This document shows, in pieces, positions 231-59,824 of a stretch of 59,824 nucleotides of DNA; position 1 is the first letter of the stretch, and each line of letters begins with the position of its first letter. The position numbers and the translations under genes were made by a program. The DNA is from a virus. Lineage: Duplodnaviria; Caudoviricetes. Location: positions 1-59,824 of IMG/VR virus record IMGVR_UViG_3300020385_000016; one strand, given 5' to 3'. The notes under the pieces are model-generated. The model did no database searches. It saw only the letters and a program-made list of their open reading frames with translations, and was not told where the DNA came from.

Positions 231-259
231 AGTGTATCATATAATCCCATAAGTGTCAA
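231..259 (-). promoter_or_regulatory. sigma70-like leftward promoter with TATGGGA motif in the spacer
   Basis: minus strand TTGACA-CTTATGGGATTATATGA(17)-TACACT. Confidence 0.75.
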
Positions 260-292
260 GAAGTTTATTTATACTTATACACAAAAAAGTTC

Positions 293-321
293 TTGACAAA
301 TACATATATATGGGATATTAT
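293..321 (+). promoter_or_regulatory. sigma70-like rightward promoter with TATGGGA motif
   Basis: TTGACA-17 nt ending ATGGGA-TATTAT; upstream of an AAGGA RBS and ATG 353. Confidence 0.75.
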
Positions 322-352
322 GATATATTATTAATCTAACAAAAAGGAAAAT

Positions 353-556
353 ATGAAAGTAAAAATAAACATTGAGTGGAGAAAAAAAGAAGAGCCGGGT
401 TTAGATCCAGAATTTCTGGTGAGAACAGCTCTTAAATCTGCTGGTTACCACGTTGGGCATATTGAGGTCCAGGGCATGTGGTGCGAAGATAAACCAAAAT
501 TTGCTCACGGACCGTGGGATGAGACCAGACTTCCGCATGAAGAGATTGCTAAGTGA
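353..556 (+). CDS. hypothetical early protein
   Basis: ORF with RBS (AAAGGAAAAT-ATG) behind a promoter. Confidence 0.75.
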   Translation: MKVKINIEWRKKEEPGLDPEFLVRTALKSAGYHVGHIEVQGMWCEDKPKFAHGPWDETRLPHEEIAK

Positions 557-729
557 GGAGAATTAAACACAACGACTTGCTGCCATGGTTTACACAGGAC
601 CATGGCCAGCTGCCGGCTTCATACCTGAAGAGCACCCAGAAATTTTTTAATGAGCTACAAGCCACAAGCTACAAGCCACAAGCTACAAGCTTGACAAATC
701 AACTGGGAAAATATAAGAAGAATATATGA
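553..729 (+). CDS. small hypothetical protein (58 aa, GTG start; not in ORF track)
   Basis: GTGA overlap with the upstream stop and ATGA overlap with the downstream start; MRRIKHNDLLPWF... Confidence 0.5.
   Translation: MRRIKHNDLLPWFTQDHGQLPASYLKSTQKFFNELQATSYKPQATSLTNQLGKYKKNI
658..692 (+). repeat. CAAGCNN heptamer array 2 (5 copies) running into a TTGACA
   Basis: CAAGCCA CAAGCTA CAAGCCA CAAGCTA CAAGCTT. Confidence 0.9.
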
Positions 730-2013: not shown

Positions 2014-2496
2014 ATGACTCAAGATAAAAGACTTACAGAACAACAACGTAAATTTGCAGAATTACTAGTTTATAATGAAGGCAGGCTATCACCAGCCGAA
2101 GCAGCCTATCAAGCAGGGTATAAAACAAGAGCAAGACAAGCAGCATCAGAGATGCGTAATGCTAAATATTTCCCATTGGTTGTCACATATATTGGTGAGT
2201 TAAGAAGAGAAGTACAAGAGAAGAATCAAATTACTGTTGAAAGACATCTTACTGAACTAGCAAAATTAAGAGATGAAGCACAGAAGAAAGGTGCTTGGTC
2301 AGCAGCTATAAATGCTGAAGTTGCTAGAGGTAAAGCAGGTGGATTATATGTAGATCAAAAACTTATTATGACAGGTAATCTAGACAATATGTCAGAGAAA
2401 GAACTAGAAGCCAAGATGGCTAAAATTCTAGATGATCATAAAAATTTGATTGATGTTACCCCTGAAGGTATTGAAGATAAATCACAACAAGCATAA
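2014..2496 (+). CDS. terS: terminase small subunit-like HTH protein
   Basis: LTEQQRKFAELL...AEAAYQAGYK...ASEMRN resembles the Terminase_2 N-terminus; ATG 2014 after TAAGG preferred over the 1921 start. Confidence 0.7.
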   Translation: MTQDKRLTEQQRKFAELLVYNEGRLSPAEAAYQAGYKTRARQAASEMRNAKYFPLVVTYIGELRREVQEKNQITVERHLTELAKLRDEAQKKGAWSAAINAEVARGKAGGLYVDQKLIMTGNLDNMSEKELEAKMAKILDDHKNLIDVTPEGIEDKSQQA

Positions 2497-3920: not shown

Positions 3921-4612
3921 TAATCTTTTCCTTTCAGTTCATCGTAGTATTGATCCACCTTTTTTAGCCACTGTTGCATATACTTCTTCATCTCAAGTCC
4001 TTGTATTATAAACTCTTGATAGAAGTTATCTTTACTGCACATCATAATCACACCTTTAGATATATTTGTTTTGTGCACATAATTGTGAGCCATTGTATAA
4101 GCAGCTAATTGTATACAATAGTCTTCAATCCATTCTCTCTTCTTTGGTTTATTAGTTTGTTTAAAATCTACAACAGCCATTTCATTTTTATGATTGGCAA
4201 TTAAATCTGTTTGTCCTGCGTATAGGCCTGGATAATATAATACCGTCTCCGATCCGTAATACTCTGTCAAATTACAAAGACCCTGTTCTATTACAACTTT
4301 GGCCATATTGTGTGCTTCCTGACCCACTGTTGTCATGTCCATATAACCTTCTCCTAGGATATACTTCTCTAGAATCTTATGCATTGCTGTGCCTCTAGCA
4401 CCACTAGAAGCCACAATCCGCGCTGCACTGTCCTCTCCCACCCTATTACGCCACGCTTGCAGCGATTCACGCTTCTCTGTCGATTGTGTGGCAGAGAGAA
4501 TAGTCGTTACCGATGGTAGCTTAAATTTACCCGCGTCGATGTCATAGACCCGTTTGCCGTCGACATTGGATCTAACGCATTTTGGATAAATAAATTTATT
4601 ATTATGTTTCAT
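3920..4612 (-). CDS. PD-(D/E)XK exonuclease (RecB/Cas4-like phage exonuclease)
   Basis: LPSVTTIL, RGTAMH, AGQTDL, DFK and QLAAY motifs. Confidence 0.85.
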   Translation of the reverse strand: MKHNNKFIYPKCVRSNVDGKRVYDIDAGKFKLPSVTTILSATQSTEKRESLQAWRNRVGEDSAARIVASSGARGTAMHKILEKYILGEGYMDMTTVGQEAHNMAKVVIEQGLCNLTEYYGSETVLYYPGLYAGQTDLIANHKNEMAVVDFKQTNKPKKREWIEDYCIQLAAYTMAHNYVHKTNISKGVIMMCSKDNFYQEFIIQGLEMKKYMQQWLKKVDQYYDELKGKD

Positions 4613-5316
4613 TTAGTTAAACCTTTTTCAAATTCTTGAAGTAAAGATAACTGTTTTTGTTGTTGTTCTCTTTCACGTTCATAGTTATTCTTACCACCTT
4701 TATAAGTATTAGAGTTTTCATGGAACCATGTTTGTGCGTTAACTACATCATAAACAGCATCGGGATCAGAAGATTGGCCCGCATTGCCAACAGAGTTACC
4801 TTTCGGCGTTGTCCATCTTAAATTTTCTATTCTATAATCTGTTCTATTACCATTGATATGATCTACAACAATATTAGTTTTAGGATCAGGGTTAGGAACA
4901 AAACATAAAGCCACCGTTTTATGAATTGTAATTTCTATTTCTTTTTTCTTCTCTACCACTTTTTTATACATAACCTGTCTAAAATCTTGTTGAGAACGCG
5001 TTTCTTTTACATGATACATTTTTAACATGGGGTAACCTATACTGGCTTTACCTTTTGAAATTGTGCCTGTTAGAATTTTTCTACCATATCCTTTTACGTG
5101 ATAAACAAACGGCCAAATGTTTTCTAAATATTCTTTTCTAACTTTTTCTTTATTTTCACATTTACCAAAAAAATGTGGTCCACCTGTTCTAAAACAAAAA
5201 TATCGATTAGGTTCTACTTCAGATAAAACCGTAGAGACATCAACACCATCTTTTGGGTTAATGTTAGCTAATATTTGTTTGAGTGTATTATCTACTTCTT
5301 TTATTCCTAAATTCAT
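4609..5316 (-). CDS. HNH endonuclease (free-standing, homing-like)
   Basis: IHKTVALCFVPNP...VDHINGNRTDYRIENLRWTTPKGN. Confidence 0.85.
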   Translation of the reverse strand: MNLGIKEVDNTLKQILANINPKDGVDVSTVLSEVEPNRYFCFRTGGPHFFGKCENKEKVRKEYLENIWPFVYHVKGYGRKILTGTISKGKASIGYPMLKMYHVKETRSQQDFRQVMYKKVVEKKKEIEITIHKTVALCFVPNPDPKTNIVVDHINGNRTDYRIENLRWTTPKGNSVGNAGQSSDPDAVYDVVNAQTWFHENSNTYKGGKNNYEREREQQQKQLSLLQEFEKGLTK

Positions 5317-5325
5317 TTATCCTCT

Positions 5326-5640
5326 TTAAAAAATTTTTTTAAATGTTCTCGAAACTTCATTTTCGTTCTGGGAGACACTACGTCTAGTACTCTCTCCCGA
5401 AGAACGCCGAGAGTCGTCGCTAGGTTGCCCATCATCGCTTAGGTTCAGGGAATCGCCAGTGGCAGAATTTGTACCCCTATCTCGGTCAATTATCTTTTTT
5501 CCTTTAAAAAATTTTTCTAGATGTTCTATAAAATCTTTATCTAATTCTTGTTTTTTAGGCATAGGTACATCCGCGTTCCTATACTCTTCTTCCTCTGTCA
5601 TCACTTCTTTTTTAGTTGCTTCGTATAACTCATCGGTCAT
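5326..5640 (-). CDS. hypothetical protein
   Basis: ORF with AGGAAAG RBS; C-terminal frame uncertain. Confidence 0.45.
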   Translation of the reverse strand: MTDELYEATKKEVMTEEEEYRNADVPMPKKQELDKDFIEHLEKFFKGKKIIDRDRGTNSATGDSLNLSDDGQPSDDSRRSSGESTRRSVSQNENEVSRTFKKIF

Positions 5641-5761: not shown

Positions 5762-5950
5762 TCAAAGAACACCTTTCTCACGTAATTCGTCTGGTGTGAA
5801 TTTATCATCAATCCACAGCTCTCCGGTTCTTTCACAATCATCACACTGTGCGTGTGTCTCTTCTTTTGTTAAATGATAAGGTACTCTGTAAAAACCATTT
5901 CCCTTACATTTTGGACAGAAGATCTTATGCTTTCCCGTTTTTGTAGCCAT
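5762..5950 (-). CDS. DnaJ-type zinc-finger small protein
   Basis: CPKCKGNG ... CDDCERTG. Confidence 0.75.
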   Translation of the reverse strand: MATKTGKHKIFCPKCKGNGFYRVPYHLTKEETHAQCDDCERTGELWIDDKFTPDELREKGVL

Positions 5951-6098
5951 GTTTCTTTGCCTTCTCGTTAATTATACTTTCGATTACTTTACTTATACTT
6001 AACTCTGTGTCTGTTATTATTTTATCTTTCAAGAAATTTGCCTTTTGCCAGGCAGCTCTTGGTACAGATACACTTTTATGTTTAGCTGGATCAGCCAT
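5925..6098 (-). CDS. putative ribbon-helix-helix DNA-binding protein (57 aa; not in ORF track)
   Basis: MADPAKHKSVSVPRAAWQKANFLKDKIITDTELSISKVIESIINEKAKKHG: strand-helix-helix pattern, GAAAGG RBS, own promoter. Confidence 0.6.
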   Translation of the reverse strand: MADPAKHKSVSVPRAAWQKANFLKDKIITDTELSISKVIESIINEKAKKHGYKNGKA

Positions 6099-6135
6099 AT
6101 TATACCTTTCTTTGTTAGTGTTTTCTTCTCATTGA

Positions 6136-6171
6136 TATGGGAAGATATAATAAAATAACAAGGGTTGTCAA
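6136..6171 (-). promoter_or_regulatory. sigma70-like promoter with TATGGGA-type site
   Basis: minus TTGACA-18 nt-TATCTT-CCCATA. Confidence 0.6.
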
Positions 6172-15879: not shown

Positions 15880-15918
15880 CTTGACAATCTATATAGTAGT
15901 TATTATATACTTGTCAAG
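15880..15918. promoter_or_regulatory. overlapping divergent promoters
   Basis: CTTGACAA...TTGTCAAG inverted -35 boxes between divergent genes. Confidence 0.65.
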
Positions 15919-15928
15919 TAGAAAGAAT

Positions 15929-56637: not shown

Positions 56638-58100
56638 TAATAATAATTATAAGTTCGTTTAGCTTGCGCTTCTTGCTTTTCGTCTTCTGGATGCCCTATA
56701 AATCCCCCTTGTCTAAATCGCATCACAGCTTGAGTCATACTATCGACTAAGTCATCATTCTCTCCATACGGAAAGGCAGCACACTCTTCGACTACTTCTT
56801 CTGCAAATTTGTCATCTGGCGCCCAGACTTGCCCCGATTCAAATAACGGCGCAACGGCGTTAACTCTAGCATGTTTATCGTTACCTTTGCTAGGAGTGAA
56901 ATTTATAACAGGTATCCCCATTTTTCGCAACTCATAAGTAAGAGGTAATCCTGATGCTTTGGCCTCTACAATAACTGTATCTGGATTCCAATACTTCCAT
57001 TGATCGTAAGCAACTTTCTTAAGTTCTGGAAACTCTAGTCGTTCTTTGTGTGCATCAAGTAGAATAAGATTCGGTCCGCTGTCCTCGTTTGGATAAAAGA
57101 CGCCCCACGTTGTAATCGCAGAATAGTCAGCGGTTTCTTTTTTGAGGAACGCGGTGTCGTAAGATTGTATAATATGTTCGAGCTTTGGAATATATCCTTT
57201 GTCCCAAACTTTCCACCATTCACGTTTAATGATTGATCCTTCTTCTGCTGTTGGATCTTGCATCCACTGTGCATTCCATTTACCAATGGATAGCGAAGCT
57301 TTGACCGCTTCAAGTTCTTTTAGTGCCCAATACTCTGGCCATACCGGTTTACCTGATGGCATGATTGCTGGAAACTCAATCACTTCCCATTGATCTGATT
57401 TTAATTCTTTTTGAGATTTAATTAACATTCCTGTTAAATCTTTTGTATTCCATCTCGTCATAACTACAACGATTGCTCCACCGGGTTGAAGTCTTTGTCG
57501 TGGTCCTGATGTATACCATTCATAAGCTCGCTCAAGAGCTGTGATGTTTAATGCGTCTTGCTCCGAATGTGGATCATCGATAATAAGTAAATCCGCACCA
57601 CGGCCCGTTATCGCCGATCCAACACCGGCTGCATAATATTCACCACCTTGTTCTGTTTCCCATTTGCCCGCGGCTTGCGAATCTTCTTTAAGTCTTGTTT
57701 TGAAAACGGATTGGTATTCGGGTGTATCAATTAAGTTTTTAGCTTTACGTCCAAAGCGGATCGCTAATTCTGTAGTGTGAGTTGTTTGTATAATCTTAAG
57801 ATCTGGTTTACGACCAACCATCCAAGCAGGAAGTAAGAACGAACTAAATTCAGACTTTGTATGTCTTGGTGGCATATTAATAATAATTCTTTTTAATTTG
57901 CCATTTGCCAAACGGTTAAATTTTTCTGCAATTTTTTTGTGATGATCACCTTCTATAAATTCAGGCCATACATGTTTTACAAAAGAAAGGAAATCAGATT
58001 TGACTTTGTTTTCGGTTTTTTTTTCAGAAAGCTTTATAGCATACTTCATGAAATCTTTTTTTACGTCAGGAGGTAACTTGTCTATAATTTCTTGTTTCAT
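56637..58100 (-). CDS. terL: terminase large subunit
   Basis: NMPPRHTKS, TGRGADLLIIDDP, MTRW, SYDTA, DYSA, EAKASG, DDLVDS. Confidence 0.95.
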   Translation of the reverse strand: MKQEIIDKLPPDVKKDFMKYAIKLSEKKTENKVKSDFLSFVKHVWPEFIEGDHHKKIAEKFNRLANGKLKRIIINMPPRHTKSEFSSFLLPAWMVGRKPDLKIIQTTHTTELAIRFGRKAKNLIDTPEYQSVFKTRLKEDSQAAGKWETEQGGEYYAAGVGSAITGRGADLLIIDDPHSEQDALNITALERAYEWYTSGPRQRLQPGGAIVVVMTRWNTKDLTGMLIKSQKELKSDQWEVIEFPAIMPSGKPVWPEYWALKELEAVKASLSIGKWNAQWMQDPTAEEGSIIKREWWKVWDKGYIPKLEHIIQSYDTAFLKKETADYSAITTWGVFYPNEDSGPNLILLDAHKERLEFPELKKVAYDQWKYWNPDTVIVEAKASGLPLTYELRKMGIPVINFTPSKGNDKHARVNAVAPLFESGQVWAPDDKFAEEVVEECAAFPYGENDDLVDSMTQAVMRFRQGGFIGHPEDEKQEAQAKRTYNYY

Positions 58101-58301
58101 AAAATTTTGTGCAGAATTTTTTAAGAGCTCTGTTTATTGCTATAAGTATTTTATACCATATCTATCTCTAAAACTAGGCATAAAGGTAAACTGTGTGGGA
58201 CCCCTATGCGCAAAGGGTGTGTGGGGGTCAATTGTGGCAACATTGTGGCAATCTCTTTGGGACCCACCGGGCGCCCTGGCGCACAACCTGTGGTTGTAGT
58301 C

Positions 58302-58319
58302 CGCCCCCGTTAGGGGGCG
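58302..58319. terminator. GC-rich hairpin
   Basis: CGCCCCC-GTTA-GGGGGCG. Confidence 0.55.
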
Positions 58320-58364
58320 ACCCATTTTGGACACATAGATGCTTGACATCTATGGGAAAATATG

Positions 58365-58634
58365 CTAGTCCAATAACTTATAATATTCGTCAGTAAAGTT
58401 TACACTGAACCAATCCAATCCCTTTCGCATTGTATCGTAGTCTTCCTCTACTTCTGCATCCTTAATCTTATCGTATACCATTGCTGCGTACCTCGGTAGT
58501 TTAACACTAACTTTACTGAACGGGTTAGTTCTAATTACTTCCTGTTGCTGTGTCTTTAGTTCGTTGCCATCCATCATCAATGTGAATGGTAGTTTGTTTG
58601 GGTACACATAGTTTAATTGTTTTGTTATAGACAT
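58365..58634 (-). CDS. hypothetical early protein
   Basis: ATG 58634 after GAAAGGAAAT; ends LDWF...EYYKLLD. Confidence 0.75.
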   Translation of the reverse strand: MSITKQLNYVYPNKLPFTLMMDGNELKTQQQEVIRTNPFSKVSVKLPRYAAMVYDKIKDAEVEEDYDTMRKGLDWFSVNFTDEYYKLLD

Positions 58635-58651
58635 ATTTCCTTTCGTTTGTT

Positions 58652-58688
58652 TATGGGATATTATAGCATAATTATTCTGCTGTGTCAA
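58652..58688 (-). promoter_or_regulatory. consensus sigma70 promoter with downstream TCCCATA operator half-site
   Basis: TTGACA-17-TATAAT with extended TG, followed by ATCCCATAA. Confidence 0.85.
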
Positions 58689-59001
58689 CCCCTCTTTCTT
58701 TTATTGTTTTATCTGTATAAGGTTCGCCATAATAATCTGTCCTTGTAAAAGTTTCAATTTCAATCGGTGTTTCAAGTGGTGTGTGTCGTGGTGCGATTGC
58801 AATGCATTGTGGCGCATACTTTCTAAAGAAATCATTCCAACAACCTTGACTACAAAAATATTGCCAACCATTATTTACATTCCACTCCGTTGTTTTTACT
58901 TTCTTAGTTCTTAAAACTTTAGAACCTTTGCTACCTCTTATCCTGTCCTGTGTGTGAGATTTGTGACACGACGGACCATGACACCATTTATAATCGCTCA
59001 T
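58672..59001 (-). CDS. Cys-containing early protein
   Basis: CHGPSC ... FCSQGC. Confidence 0.75.
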   Translation of the reverse strand: MSDYKWCHGPSCHKSHTQDRIRGSKGSKVLRTKKVKTTEWNVNNGWQYFCSQGCWNDFFRKYAPQCIAIAPRHTPLETPIEIETFTRTDYYGEPYTDKTIKERGVDTAE

Positions 59002-59178
59002 TATTCAACCCCCATAATACAGAAAAAAACAACTCCAACAAAAATTGTAAATCCTAATAAAAATAATAATGTTATCATGATGATCTATATCCCTCTATTC
59101 CCATAATAACTATTGCTACTATGAAAATTATAGAAAGCCCGATAGGGCTTTCTATAAATATTAAATTAAGTAATTCAA

Positions 59179-59379
59179 TCATATTCTAATCTTCGCCTCG
59201 CCTGTTGCCATTCTCCAACCGTCTGCGTCTAGATCCCAATAAACTAAACAAGGGTTGCCATTTTTAGATACAAATGATTTTCCCTCAGTTCCGTCAGGTT
59301 TGTTGTATTGACCTTTTCTAGTTATAAACTTCTTATGCTTTCTAGCAAAGTAAGTTATGTGAAATGTTTCGTTTTGCAT
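59179..59379 (-). CDS. hypothetical early protein
   Basis: RBS GAAAGGAAAT; YWDLDADGWRMA. Confidence 0.8.
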   Translation of the reverse strand: MQNETFHITYFARKHKKFITRKGQYNKPDGTEGKSFVSKNGNPCLVYWDLDADGWRMATGEAKIRI

Positions 59380-59395
59380 ATTTCCTTTCTGTTGT

Positions 59396-59432
59396 TATGG
59401 GACATTATAACATAATGTCCCATAGCTGTCAA
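59396..59432 (-). promoter_or_regulatory. consensus sigma70 promoter overlapped by a perfect operator palindrome
   Basis: TTGACA-17-TATAAT; TATGGGACATTAT-N3-ATAATGTCCCATA. Confidence 0.88.
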
Positions 59433-59435
59433 GTA

Positions 59436-59597
59436 TTAAATTACTGTCACTAAATGAAAAGTTTTATCATTTTCTGTGTTCAATAATTCTAGTGCTTGTA
59501 GTTTTTTTTGTGCTGTCGCCTCATCTTTATCTTGCGCCTCTACATAATAGCTGTCTTCCGATATTTTAAATTTAAGTCTTGATATTATTATGTGCAT
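59436..59597 (-). CDS. small early protein (53 aa; not in track)
   Basis: MHIIISRLKFKISEDSYYVEA...; sits between two promoters. Confidence 0.65.
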   Translation of the reverse strand: MHIIISRLKFKISEDSYYVEAQDKDEATAQKKLQALELLNTENDKTFHLVTVI

Positions 59598-59617
59598 ATT
59601 TTCTTTCTGTTAGTGTT

Positions 59618-59656
59618 TATATGGGATATTATATTACAATATCCCATATATGTCAA
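59618..59656 (-). promoter_or_regulatory. consensus sigma70 promoter overlapped by an operator palindrome
   Basis: TTGACA-17-TATAAT; TATATGGGATATT-N7-AATATCCCATATA. Confidence 0.88.
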
Positions 59657-59659
59657 GTG

Positions 59660-59824
59660 TTAATTTAATGGGCCAAATTTTTGTTGTTGCTCATATTTTA
59701 ATCTAGCCTCTATTTTATCTTTTAAAGATACTTGTTTATTCTTCATACCTTTAATCATATTAGCAAGATTGCTAGGGTTGTAGATAGTTAAACCAGTAGA
59801 ATTAGTTCTAACTAATTCTGCCTC
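59660..59824 (-). CDS. partial hypothetical protein (3' end)
   Basis: open to the window edge: EAELVRTNSTGLTIYNPSNLA... Confidence 0.65.
   Translation of the reverse strand, partial: EAELVRTNSTGLTIYNPSNLANMIKGMKNKQVSLKDKIEARLKYEQQQKFGPLN

Follow-up and report, generated by a model that had tools for sequence, protein, structure and literature searches.

Promoter/stem-loop cassette junctions resembling PeSLs upstream of terL in an HTVC023P-type pelagiphage

The virus record IMGVR_UViG_3300020385_000016 carries, upstream of the terminase gene terL, an array of small open reading frames (ORFs) headed by strong promoters, some of which are overlapped by TATGGGA palindromes. Here, we analysed the whole record, 59,824 bp with a GC content of 35% (hereafter the window), together with its relatives. 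The analysis identifies a promoter/stem-loop cassette junction that is widespread in HTVC023P-type pelagiphages, occurs well above chance and is closest to the promoter-early stem-loops (PeSLs) of T4-like myoviruses. With confidence slightly better than even, we read the TATGGGA palindromes as the stem-loop part of PeSL-like promoter/hairpin cassettes lying between the small and rapidly changing genes ahead of terL.

The portal protein of the window is 72.5% identical to that of phage 023Pt_psg01, 63.5% to that of Pelagibacter phage HTVC027P and 52% to that of HTVC023P, and the window encodes terminase, family-A DNA polymerase, primase and helicases. The portal identities and this set of replication and packaging genes identify the window as an HTVC023P-type pelagiphage, a SAR11-infecting type placed in Podoviridae by the abstract of PMC9599517. 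IMG/VR classes the record as linear and CheckV gives a completeness of 95%. A gene resembling HTVC027P gp35 (homologue of 333 aa) is cut at 59824, with about 46 last residues retained (59660-59824), so the record ends are non-contiguous and do not form a closed circle; about 1 kb or more is absent from the record. HTVC027P is called lytic in the abstract of PMC12753301, and the accessible parts of that paper state that it lacks an RNA polymerase gene and relies on the host enzyme, that its gp33 and gp34 are strongly expressed from early to middle infection, and that the early genes of these phages are all of unknown function. No RNA polymerase domain was found among 30 proteins scanned in Pfam, a six-frame search of the window gave no tyrosine integrase, HTH_3 or RHH_1 match, and a tRNA scan of the window gave none. 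A preliminary description of the sequence had taken an integrase and a CI-type repressor to be lacking; the dormant or carrier state that it also proposed as possible has no support, HTVC027P being called lytic.

The sequence TTGACA-N17-TATAAT has exactly three matches in the window, all on the minus strand (58660-58688, 59404-59432 and 59628-59656), compared with a mean of 0.08 expected by shuffling; 0 of 100 shuffles reached three. In all three promoters the -10 hexamer is directly followed by (A/G)TCCCATA, and in two of them the mirror word TATGGGA lies in the spacer. The two palindromes are TATGGGACATTAT-GTT-ATAATGTCCCATA at 59396-59424 and TATATGGGATATT-N7-AATATCCCATATA at 59618-59650. 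Both have 13-bp arms, a GGGA..TCCC span of 23 nt and a centre at about -13, and the C/T difference between them is compensated in the opposite arm. RNA folding of the two gave -16.8 and -17.1 kcal/mol (z -5.4 and -6.1), equalled by 0 of 200 shuffles. A ribosome-binding site (RBS) resembling AACAGAAAGGAAATATG recurs at the modules at 59656, 59432, 58688, 293 and 6171. The preliminary description was thus correct on the three perfect promoters, on the two promoter-spanning inverted repeats with their compensatory change and on the near-identical RBS; its strong early promoters are indeed strong, sigma-70-type and placed ahead of small genes of the kind that is early in a relative. TATGGGA occurs 14 times on both strands of the window against 6.5 expected, a modest enrichment (1 of 100 shuffles reached 14), and 10 of the 14 copies fall in a few non-coding promoter stretches. 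The half-sites listed in the preliminary description were confirmed at 241-252, 308-321, 6136-6142, 58351-58357 and 58652-58660, but the site at 704-708 holds TGGGA only, and the TTGACA at 58343 has no acceptable -10 in a promoter scan and sits in the loop of an 8-bp hairpin. The array comprises the following features.

59618..59662, minus strand: cassette junction 1, with the stop of the upstream ORF at 59660-59662, -35 TTGACA at 59651-59656, the palindrome at 59618-59650 and -10 TATAAT at 59628-59633.
59436..59617, minus strand: 5' leader, RBS AACAGAAAGAAAATATG and a 53-aa ORF (59436-59597) of ORF cluster 42, without a Pfam or PHROG match; its position in the array differs among relatives.
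59394..59438, minus strand: cassette junction 2, with the stop at 59436-59438, -35 at 59427-59432, the palindrome at 59396-59424 and -10 at 59404-59409.
59179..59393, minus strand: RBS AACAGAAAGGAAATATG and a 66-aa ORF of cluster 9, kept in many relatives, with a weak, sub-threshold WYL_2/Sm-like match.
59128..59157, minus strand: intrinsic-terminator-like hairpin and T-run behind the 66-aa ORF, -19.1 kcal/mol, an example of the ordinary terminator form of this genome.
58672..59001, minus strand: 109-aa Cys/His-rich ORF of cluster 12, whose 3' end overlaps the next promoter; weak zf-FCS match under the cut-off.
58652..58688, minus strand: promoter 3, with -35 at 58683-58688, -10 at 58660-58665 and then ATCCCATA, a right arm only, with no left arm.
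58365..58651, minus strand: RBS AACGAAAGGAAATATG and an 89-aa ORF of cluster 2, the final early cassette ahead of terL.
58334..58357, no strand assigned: hairpin CATAGATG-CTTGA-CATCTATG with 8-bp arms (58334-58341 and 58347-58354) behind the last early ORF; TTGACA lies in the loop, TATGGGA overlaps the right arm, and the promoter scan does not list it.

Relatives were gathered by a terL-anchored scan of IMG/VR, of which the best 80 of 599 were kept (their loci are labelled L001 and onwards). These 80 loci, HTVC027P and 023Pt_psg01 (82 loci in all) and the window formed the set for module counts; the TerL proteins of the relatives are 74-92% identical. A near-identity DNA search with 58000-59824 in the phage collection gave no match, and distant DNA searches gave only two short matches, both in HTVC027P. 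Modules were searched for as TTGAC, Shine-Dalgarno sequence and ATG, blind to inverted repeats, and stems were detected per sequence by script. The recurring junction is about 65-75 bp long and consists of AATTAA with the stop of the upstream ORF inside it, three bases, TTGAC(A/T), the inverted repeat, AACAGAAAGGA, a few bases and ATG. The inverted repeat covers the spacer, the -10 hexamer and a C-rich discriminator/start block (TCCCATA), the leader after it is short and A-rich with an invariable Shine-Dalgarno sequence, and AAATTAA precedes the -35 element in most palindromic modules. A perfect stem of at least 8 bp between -35 and about +8 was found in 28 of 103 modules (27%), compared with 1% in shuffles. 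Across 767 kb, 312 strong inverted repeats were counted, 35 of them adjoining TTGAC, and 23 of these 35 contain GGGA..TCCC. The 25 distinct palindromic modules have perfect arms of 13-16 bp, loops of 0-9 nt and a centre 0-4 bp upstream of the -10 element. In 24 of 26 palindromic modules, 5-10 nt separate the upstream stop from the -35 element; one of the remaining two has its stop 11 nt past the start of the -35 element and the other has no upstream ORF. HTVC027P also keeps palindromic promoters, of the TAGGAT/ATCCTA type, and gp33 and gp34 are preceded by TTGACA promoters in L001.

The 109-aa early protein (58672-59001) is conserved, and its Cys/His residues include C7, H8, C12, H13, H16, C50 and C54. 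At the 3' junction of its ORF, L028 has a perfect palindrome, whereas that of the window, L013 and L019 is degenerate or absent.

The preliminary description had read TATGGGA as a phage-specific operator through which one regulator shuts off the early promoters. GGGA or TCCC is carried by 54 of 71 distinct promoter modules of the window and its relatives (shuffles, 6%), and the word is therefore not specific to this phage. In such an operator regulon, a phage or host protein would bind (T)ATGGGA(T/C)/(A/G)TCCCAT(A) beside or over the promoters and so silence them, with palindromes as double sites and single copies as half-sites, much as Arc acts at Pant of P22; we judge it unlikely, though a serious alternative. 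It would account for the frequency of the core motif and for its fixed position and orientation even when single: among single-copy modules, GGGA alone lies in the spacer in 16 and TCCC there in 3, and TCCC alone follows the -10 element in 10 and GGGA in 3. It would also fit the identical 23-nt geometry of the two window palindromes. Across the relatives, however, the distance spanned by GGGA..TCCC varies between 18 and 28 nt, and the three promoters of L021 each have a value of their own (19, 23 and 21 nt). The fixed half-site spacing within a genome that a repressor operator needs is thus not seen in relatives, whereas the window sites both have 23 nt.

Co-variation of the arms bears on the same question. 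Ten different -10 hexamers (TATAAT, TAGGAT, TAGATT, TATTAT, TAATAT and others) occur in the 25 distinct palindromic modules, and the spacer is complementary each time; since these modules were chosen for having a stem, pairing is given by construction and the finding lies in the diversity of the paired sequences. The inner arm positions are thus free to vary yet remain complementary, a pairing that a protein does not need. Palindromes also differ within single phages: L030 carries GGGGATAGTATA and the flipped ATATTCCCATATC, L075 carries the unrelated AGGACTACAGG and CTTGGTATCCTA, and L069 likewise carries two different palindromes. The varied spacing, the co-varying arms and these differing palindromes argue against one sequence-specific dimeric repressor.

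The position of the palindromes points the same way. We examined 71 distinct modules with a TAnnnT -10 element for a co-oriented ORF ending at most 14 nt from the -35 element. A palindrome was present at 24 of 34 promoters behind such an ORF and at 1 of 37 without one (nominal Fisher p 7e-10, the loci being related). A shut-off operator would be needed at first promoters too, where 36 of 37 lack the palindrome, whereas a hairpin on RNA arriving from upstream would not, and the placement of the palindromes therefore argues against an operator. The proposal of one regulator acting through a TATGGGA operator is thereby weakened and left unsupported.

The regulator question also involves P0001, the sole candidate small DNA-binding protein found and the suggested reader of the operator. 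It and the further promoters of the window are listed here.

5925..6098, minus strand: 57-aa P0001, modelled as a ribbon-helix-helix (RHH)-like homodimer.
6099..6171, minus strand: promoter of the RHH-like gene, with TTGACA at 6166-6171, a TAnnTT-type -10, the invariant CCCATAT and RBS AAGAAAGGTATAATATG.
240..260, minus strand: promoter-like site TTGACA (255-260) CTTATGGGATTATATGA TACACT, with a left arm only, 88% identical to L035 3210-3277.
293..355, plus strand: promoter TTGACA-N17-TATTAT, with TATATGGGATATTAT over the -10 element and RBS AAAAAGGAAAATATG, preceding a 67-aa ORF (353-556).
691..728, plus strand: TTGACA after CAAGCNN heptads, with TGGGAAAATAT, preceding the GP88-like gene 726-1343.

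Two window proteins, 2014..2496 and 5925..6098, had been put forward as regulators. The first is instead the small terminase subunit (phrog_51, E 3.3e-11). For the second, P0001, an RHH-like dimer model is compatible with the proposal. P0001 is conserved (71 clusters at E <=0.001) and shows a K-S-V-S-V-P strand followed by helices at 14-26 and 35-49; its monomer model is poor (pLDDT 62.7). When P0001 was modelled with itself, residues 8-12 of the two copies paired antiparallel, with contacts 10:10, 9:11 and 8:12. The homodimer score was 0.49 compared with 0.03 for the best control, runs agreed in at least 92% of contacts and partner pLDDT was at least 74; in calibration, the mark was reached by 20 of 30 solved homodimers and 1 of 23 single chains. 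P0001 may have passed because it resembles solved RHH dimers. Atlas matches to RHH_1, RHH_3 and RHH_6 clusters scored 0.91-0.92 and count as leads only; sequence searches with P0001 in Pfam, PHROG and PDB gave no match, nor was there a Pfam RHH match at E <=1. The window phage thus probably has a small DNA-binding protein in P0001, as judged from the models. Against P0001 as the general regulator, tblastn found no homologue in HTVC027P, which keeps palindromic promoters, or in HTVC023P, and a homologue is present in only 1 of the 82 terL-anchored loci, most of them being too short for a verdict.

The P0001 gene's own promoter is informative. Its 10 orthologous sequences have no left arm, and what is invariant in them is the -35 element, the T, A and TT of a TAnnTT -10 element 17 bp downstream and the adjoining CCCATAT. 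The longest invariant block is TTCCCATAT, which would favour an operator at the regulator's own promoter. Because CCCATAT and the -10 element are invariant without a left arm, the right arm behaves as a promoter or start element on its own, and sites with only a right arm are thereby explained. A combined version, in which (T)ATGGGA/TCCCAT(A) is a true protein site at nearly all promoters and is read by a small phage RHH dimer, P0001 or an analogue, seems to us distinctly doubtful. If it were true, a single stretch of 30 bp would serve as promoter, operator and RNA hairpin, the early genes would be timed in a phage without an RNA polymerase, sigma factor or known regulator, and the element would be a mark of nearly all promoters in the most abundant pelagiphage group known from the ocean.

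The target of P0001 could equally be the CAAGCNN arrays. These tandem 7-bp arrays lie on the plus strand at 142-171, 653-691, 1438-1469 and 1558-1601, and double-heptad matches number 8 against 0.01 expected. In L001, L003 and L004 the heptads adjoin or overlap the -35 element of the GP88-like gene promoter, whose orthologue in L003 and L004 reads TTGACA-N17-TAGTAT-GGGAAAA. The arrays could be iterons or could be bound by the RHH-like protein; a pac site is another possibility, the small terminase gene being nearby.

We return to PeSL-like promoter/hairpin cassettes and the mechanism they would imply. Host RNA polymerase would fire from each junction, with the right arm (-10 element plus CCCATA) acting as core promoter and start-site element and the left arm kept as its mirror. 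The transcript from the preceding cassette would fold into a hairpin of about -17 kcal/mol, and this hairpin might attenuate, pause or 3'-stabilise the upstream message without being a canonical intrinsic terminator. The association of palindromes with upstream ORFs lends indirect support to termination or attenuation by the stem-loop. The conserved junctions would in addition offer stretches of homology at which recombination could insert, delete and reorder ORF cassettes.

A protein-free switch would draw on the same symmetry. Under negative supercoiling of the injected DNA, or behind active upstream transcription, the AT-rich palindrome would extrude as a cruciform, the geometry of the promoter would be lost and early promoters would limit themselves. 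Horwitz and Loeb (1988) reportedly constructed in E. coli a palindromic promoter that is repressed by superhelix-induced cruciform extrusion. The perfect arms, short loops and centring just upstream of the -10 element in all 25 distinct modules suit such a switch, as does the conservation of complementarity rather than sequence. However, it leaves the conserved single arms unexplained, as well as the restriction to junctions behind co-oriented ORFs, unless upstream transcription is the trigger, and we rate it very unlikely. A -10 element for bidirectional transcription from the opposite strand was also considered and was rejected, no -35 element being present there.

The repeats might, alternatively, have no function, reflecting recent duplication of one promoter cassette with symmetry arising from template-switch (quasi-palindrome) mutation. 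Mutation is known to be biased towards quasi-palindrome correction, the modules share clear homology and have spread by recombination, and half-sites can be read as chimeric junctions. Yet the architecture persists across TerL identities of only 74-92% and in HTVC027P, whose portal protein is 63.5% identical to that of the window, and the many different arm sequences, combined with the strict link to one junction type, would be hard to maintain without selection. This explanation appears to us highly improbable.

The cassettes flanked by the junctions are variable. Upstream of terL the core order is clusters 22, 9, 12, 2 and terL, with many ORF insertions or replacements, which are seen even between phages with TerL proteins 88-92% identical. 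Cluster 42, the 53-aa ORF of the window, precedes cluster 9 in the window but follows it in L026. The early cassette ORFs gave no confident family in Pfam or PHROG. DNA similarity to relatives is often limited to the junction while the flanking ORFs differ. Thus, 58618-58705 is 90% identical in L013 (199-286 there) and 59372-59432 is 87% identical in L021 (1433-1495 there), with different flanking ORFs; junction-only similarity was also found for 59595-59670 in L051 and L058, for 292-358 in L006 and for 211-278 in L035. In one contig from the marine RNA-library run X16, 58629 is joined to 59614, so that 984 bp are skipped and the RBS word lies at the joint. The contig has 55 nt on its shorter side, and an RNA or DNA origin cannot be told apart from contigs; it is a natural variant without three cassettes, with the break within junctions. 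Gene mosaicism combined with junction conservation points to recombination between junctions. The suggestion in the preliminary description that the repeats drive cassette shuffling fits these data best, namely the variable ORF arrays, the junction-only conservation and the 984-bp skip.

Loose ends of other RNA-run contigs cluster at 58621-58691, 59439, 59633, 59664 and 59732-59735. The RNA runs consist of contigs only, whose depth and ends cannot show transcript starts or ends; stretches without coverage were left out of account, and the breaks at 59424-59442 may be no more than an effect of the repeated junction.

Several observations weigh against the PeSL-like interpretation. An intrinsic-terminator scan of 57800-59824 listed only 59157-59128; the palindromes are followed by AACA.. 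and no U-run, and since a canonical hairpin with a T-run stands about 250 bp away, classic termination is doubtful. The GGGA/TCCC core (54 of 71 modules) is much more conserved than a hairpin requires, and its orientation is biased in singletons. Left-arm-only sites are unexplained by a pure hairpin or start-element view; they may be chimeric junctions or real binding sites. Alignment of 26 modules with MAFFT followed by RNAalifold predicted 0 pairs, an outcome attributable to stems that begin at differing offsets from the -35 element; a 9-sequence module alignment shows two registers. Mismatches between the arms comprise 9 C-A and 4 G-T, and hence show no sense-strand G-U bias, although they lie mostly at stem ends and are not independent. 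Finally, the loci are homologous, and the module counts and p-values do not represent independent events.

Other elements of the window lie outside the early promoters. Two GC-rich non-coding blocks stand out in the 35% GC genome, at 58100-58340 and 1-230. The former contains a direct repeat of ATTGTGGCAAC in two copies (58231-58251) and a GC hairpin with a T-run at about 58300-58322 on the plus strand, pointing away from terL. Phage 023Pt_psg01 (L002) has comparable GC-rich blocks, containing GGGCCCACCC words, ahead of its terL. Rfam at E <=1 gave nothing on 1-320 and 58040-58400; the blocks may be non-coding RNAs or packaging sites. At the gathering score, the only Rfam match in the whole window was a full-length Flavobacterium-1 RNA at 5364-5485 on the minus strand (101.9 bits against a gathering score of 58.9), which adjoins the HNH endonuclease gene 4609-5316 and lies inside or beside ORF 5326-5640. 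At 15882-15920, flanked on one side by a PHROG-5888 gene and on the other by the SNF2 helicase gene, two divergent promoters overlap fully as CTTGACA-N-TGTCAAG. Each has TTGACA, a spacer of 16-17 bp and a TATATA-like -10 element, and each start site lies on the -35 element of the other. The face-to-face pair also occurs in L001, L003, L006, L029, L075, L076 and L080.

The word 'promoter' is absent from PMC12753301 and PMC9599517, and a full-text literature search found no paper on inverted repeats at pelagiphage promoters. Against this background, a readable grammar of promoters and junctions would provide a first handle on the timing of transcription by the SAR11 polymerase. It would also mark the boundaries of early ORFan cassettes and account for much of pelagiphage micro-diversity as junction-mediated shuffling.

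Three known systems invite comparison. In phage P22, the ribbon-helix-helix proteins Arc and Mnt control Pant, and Arc operators have a fixed half-site spacing of about one helical turn. If the operator reading held, the likeness would lie in a small phage RHH-type dimer, a palindrome over a strong promoter and shut-off in lytic growth; the pelagiphage sites differ in their spacing of 18-28 nt, and the candidate P0001 was not found in HTVC027P by tblastn. In coliphage N4, a virion RNA polymerase recognises the hairpins of the early promoters, which lack sigma-70 boxes. There, too, an inverted repeat is integral to the early promoters of a podovirus, but the pelagiphage junctions have perfect -35 and -10 boxes, and HTVC027P has no RNA polymerase gene according to the accessible parts of PMC12753301. 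Promoters of the N4 type were rejected, no RNA polymerase having been found among the 30 proteins scanned and sigma-70 boxes being present.

The closest match is provided by the PeSLs of the T4-like myoviruses RB49/phi1, PST and nt-1 (Arbiol et al. 2010, PMC2839356; Comeau et al. 2014, PMC4122927). In the accessible parts of these two papers, a PeSL combines a strong sigma-70-like early promoter with a stem-loop, an AT-rich stretch upstream and a Shine-Dalgarno sequence with ATG at the 3' end; the stem-loop is often a G-run followed by a C-run, with 'AGNA-loop-TCNT' in one pair. They describe PeSLs as flanking ORFans in hyperplastic regions, where recombination between them yields indels and mini-circles, and report terminator and promoter activity, the former for one PeSL in a lacZ reporter. 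Set against these descriptions, the junctions of the window and its relatives likewise have a consensus sigma-70-type promoter with an AT-rich stretch upstream, a G-run/C-run stem-loop between the -35 and -10 elements or over the -10 element, and a Shine-Dalgarno sequence with ATG at the 3' end, the upstream stop lying at the 5' end. They also occur once per small ORFan in a hyperplastic region, outlast the genes they flank and contain the indel breakpoints. They differ in belonging to a pelagiphage lineage with a SAR11 host and not to a T4-like myovirus, in stems that lack a U-run, which leaves any terminator activity here hypothetical, and in a right arm that holds a conserved CCCATA start block, which stands alone at other promoters. 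With all sequence-level features of PeSLs present and the U-run lacking, we file the element as a PeSL-like cassette junction with a putative role at the RNA level. This carries the PeSL concept beyond the T4-like myoviruses into a lineage of marine phages unrelated to them. The presence of such junctions in an unrelated lineage suggests convergence, in which a promoter with an embedded hairpin may be a general solution for autonomous early-gene cassettes.

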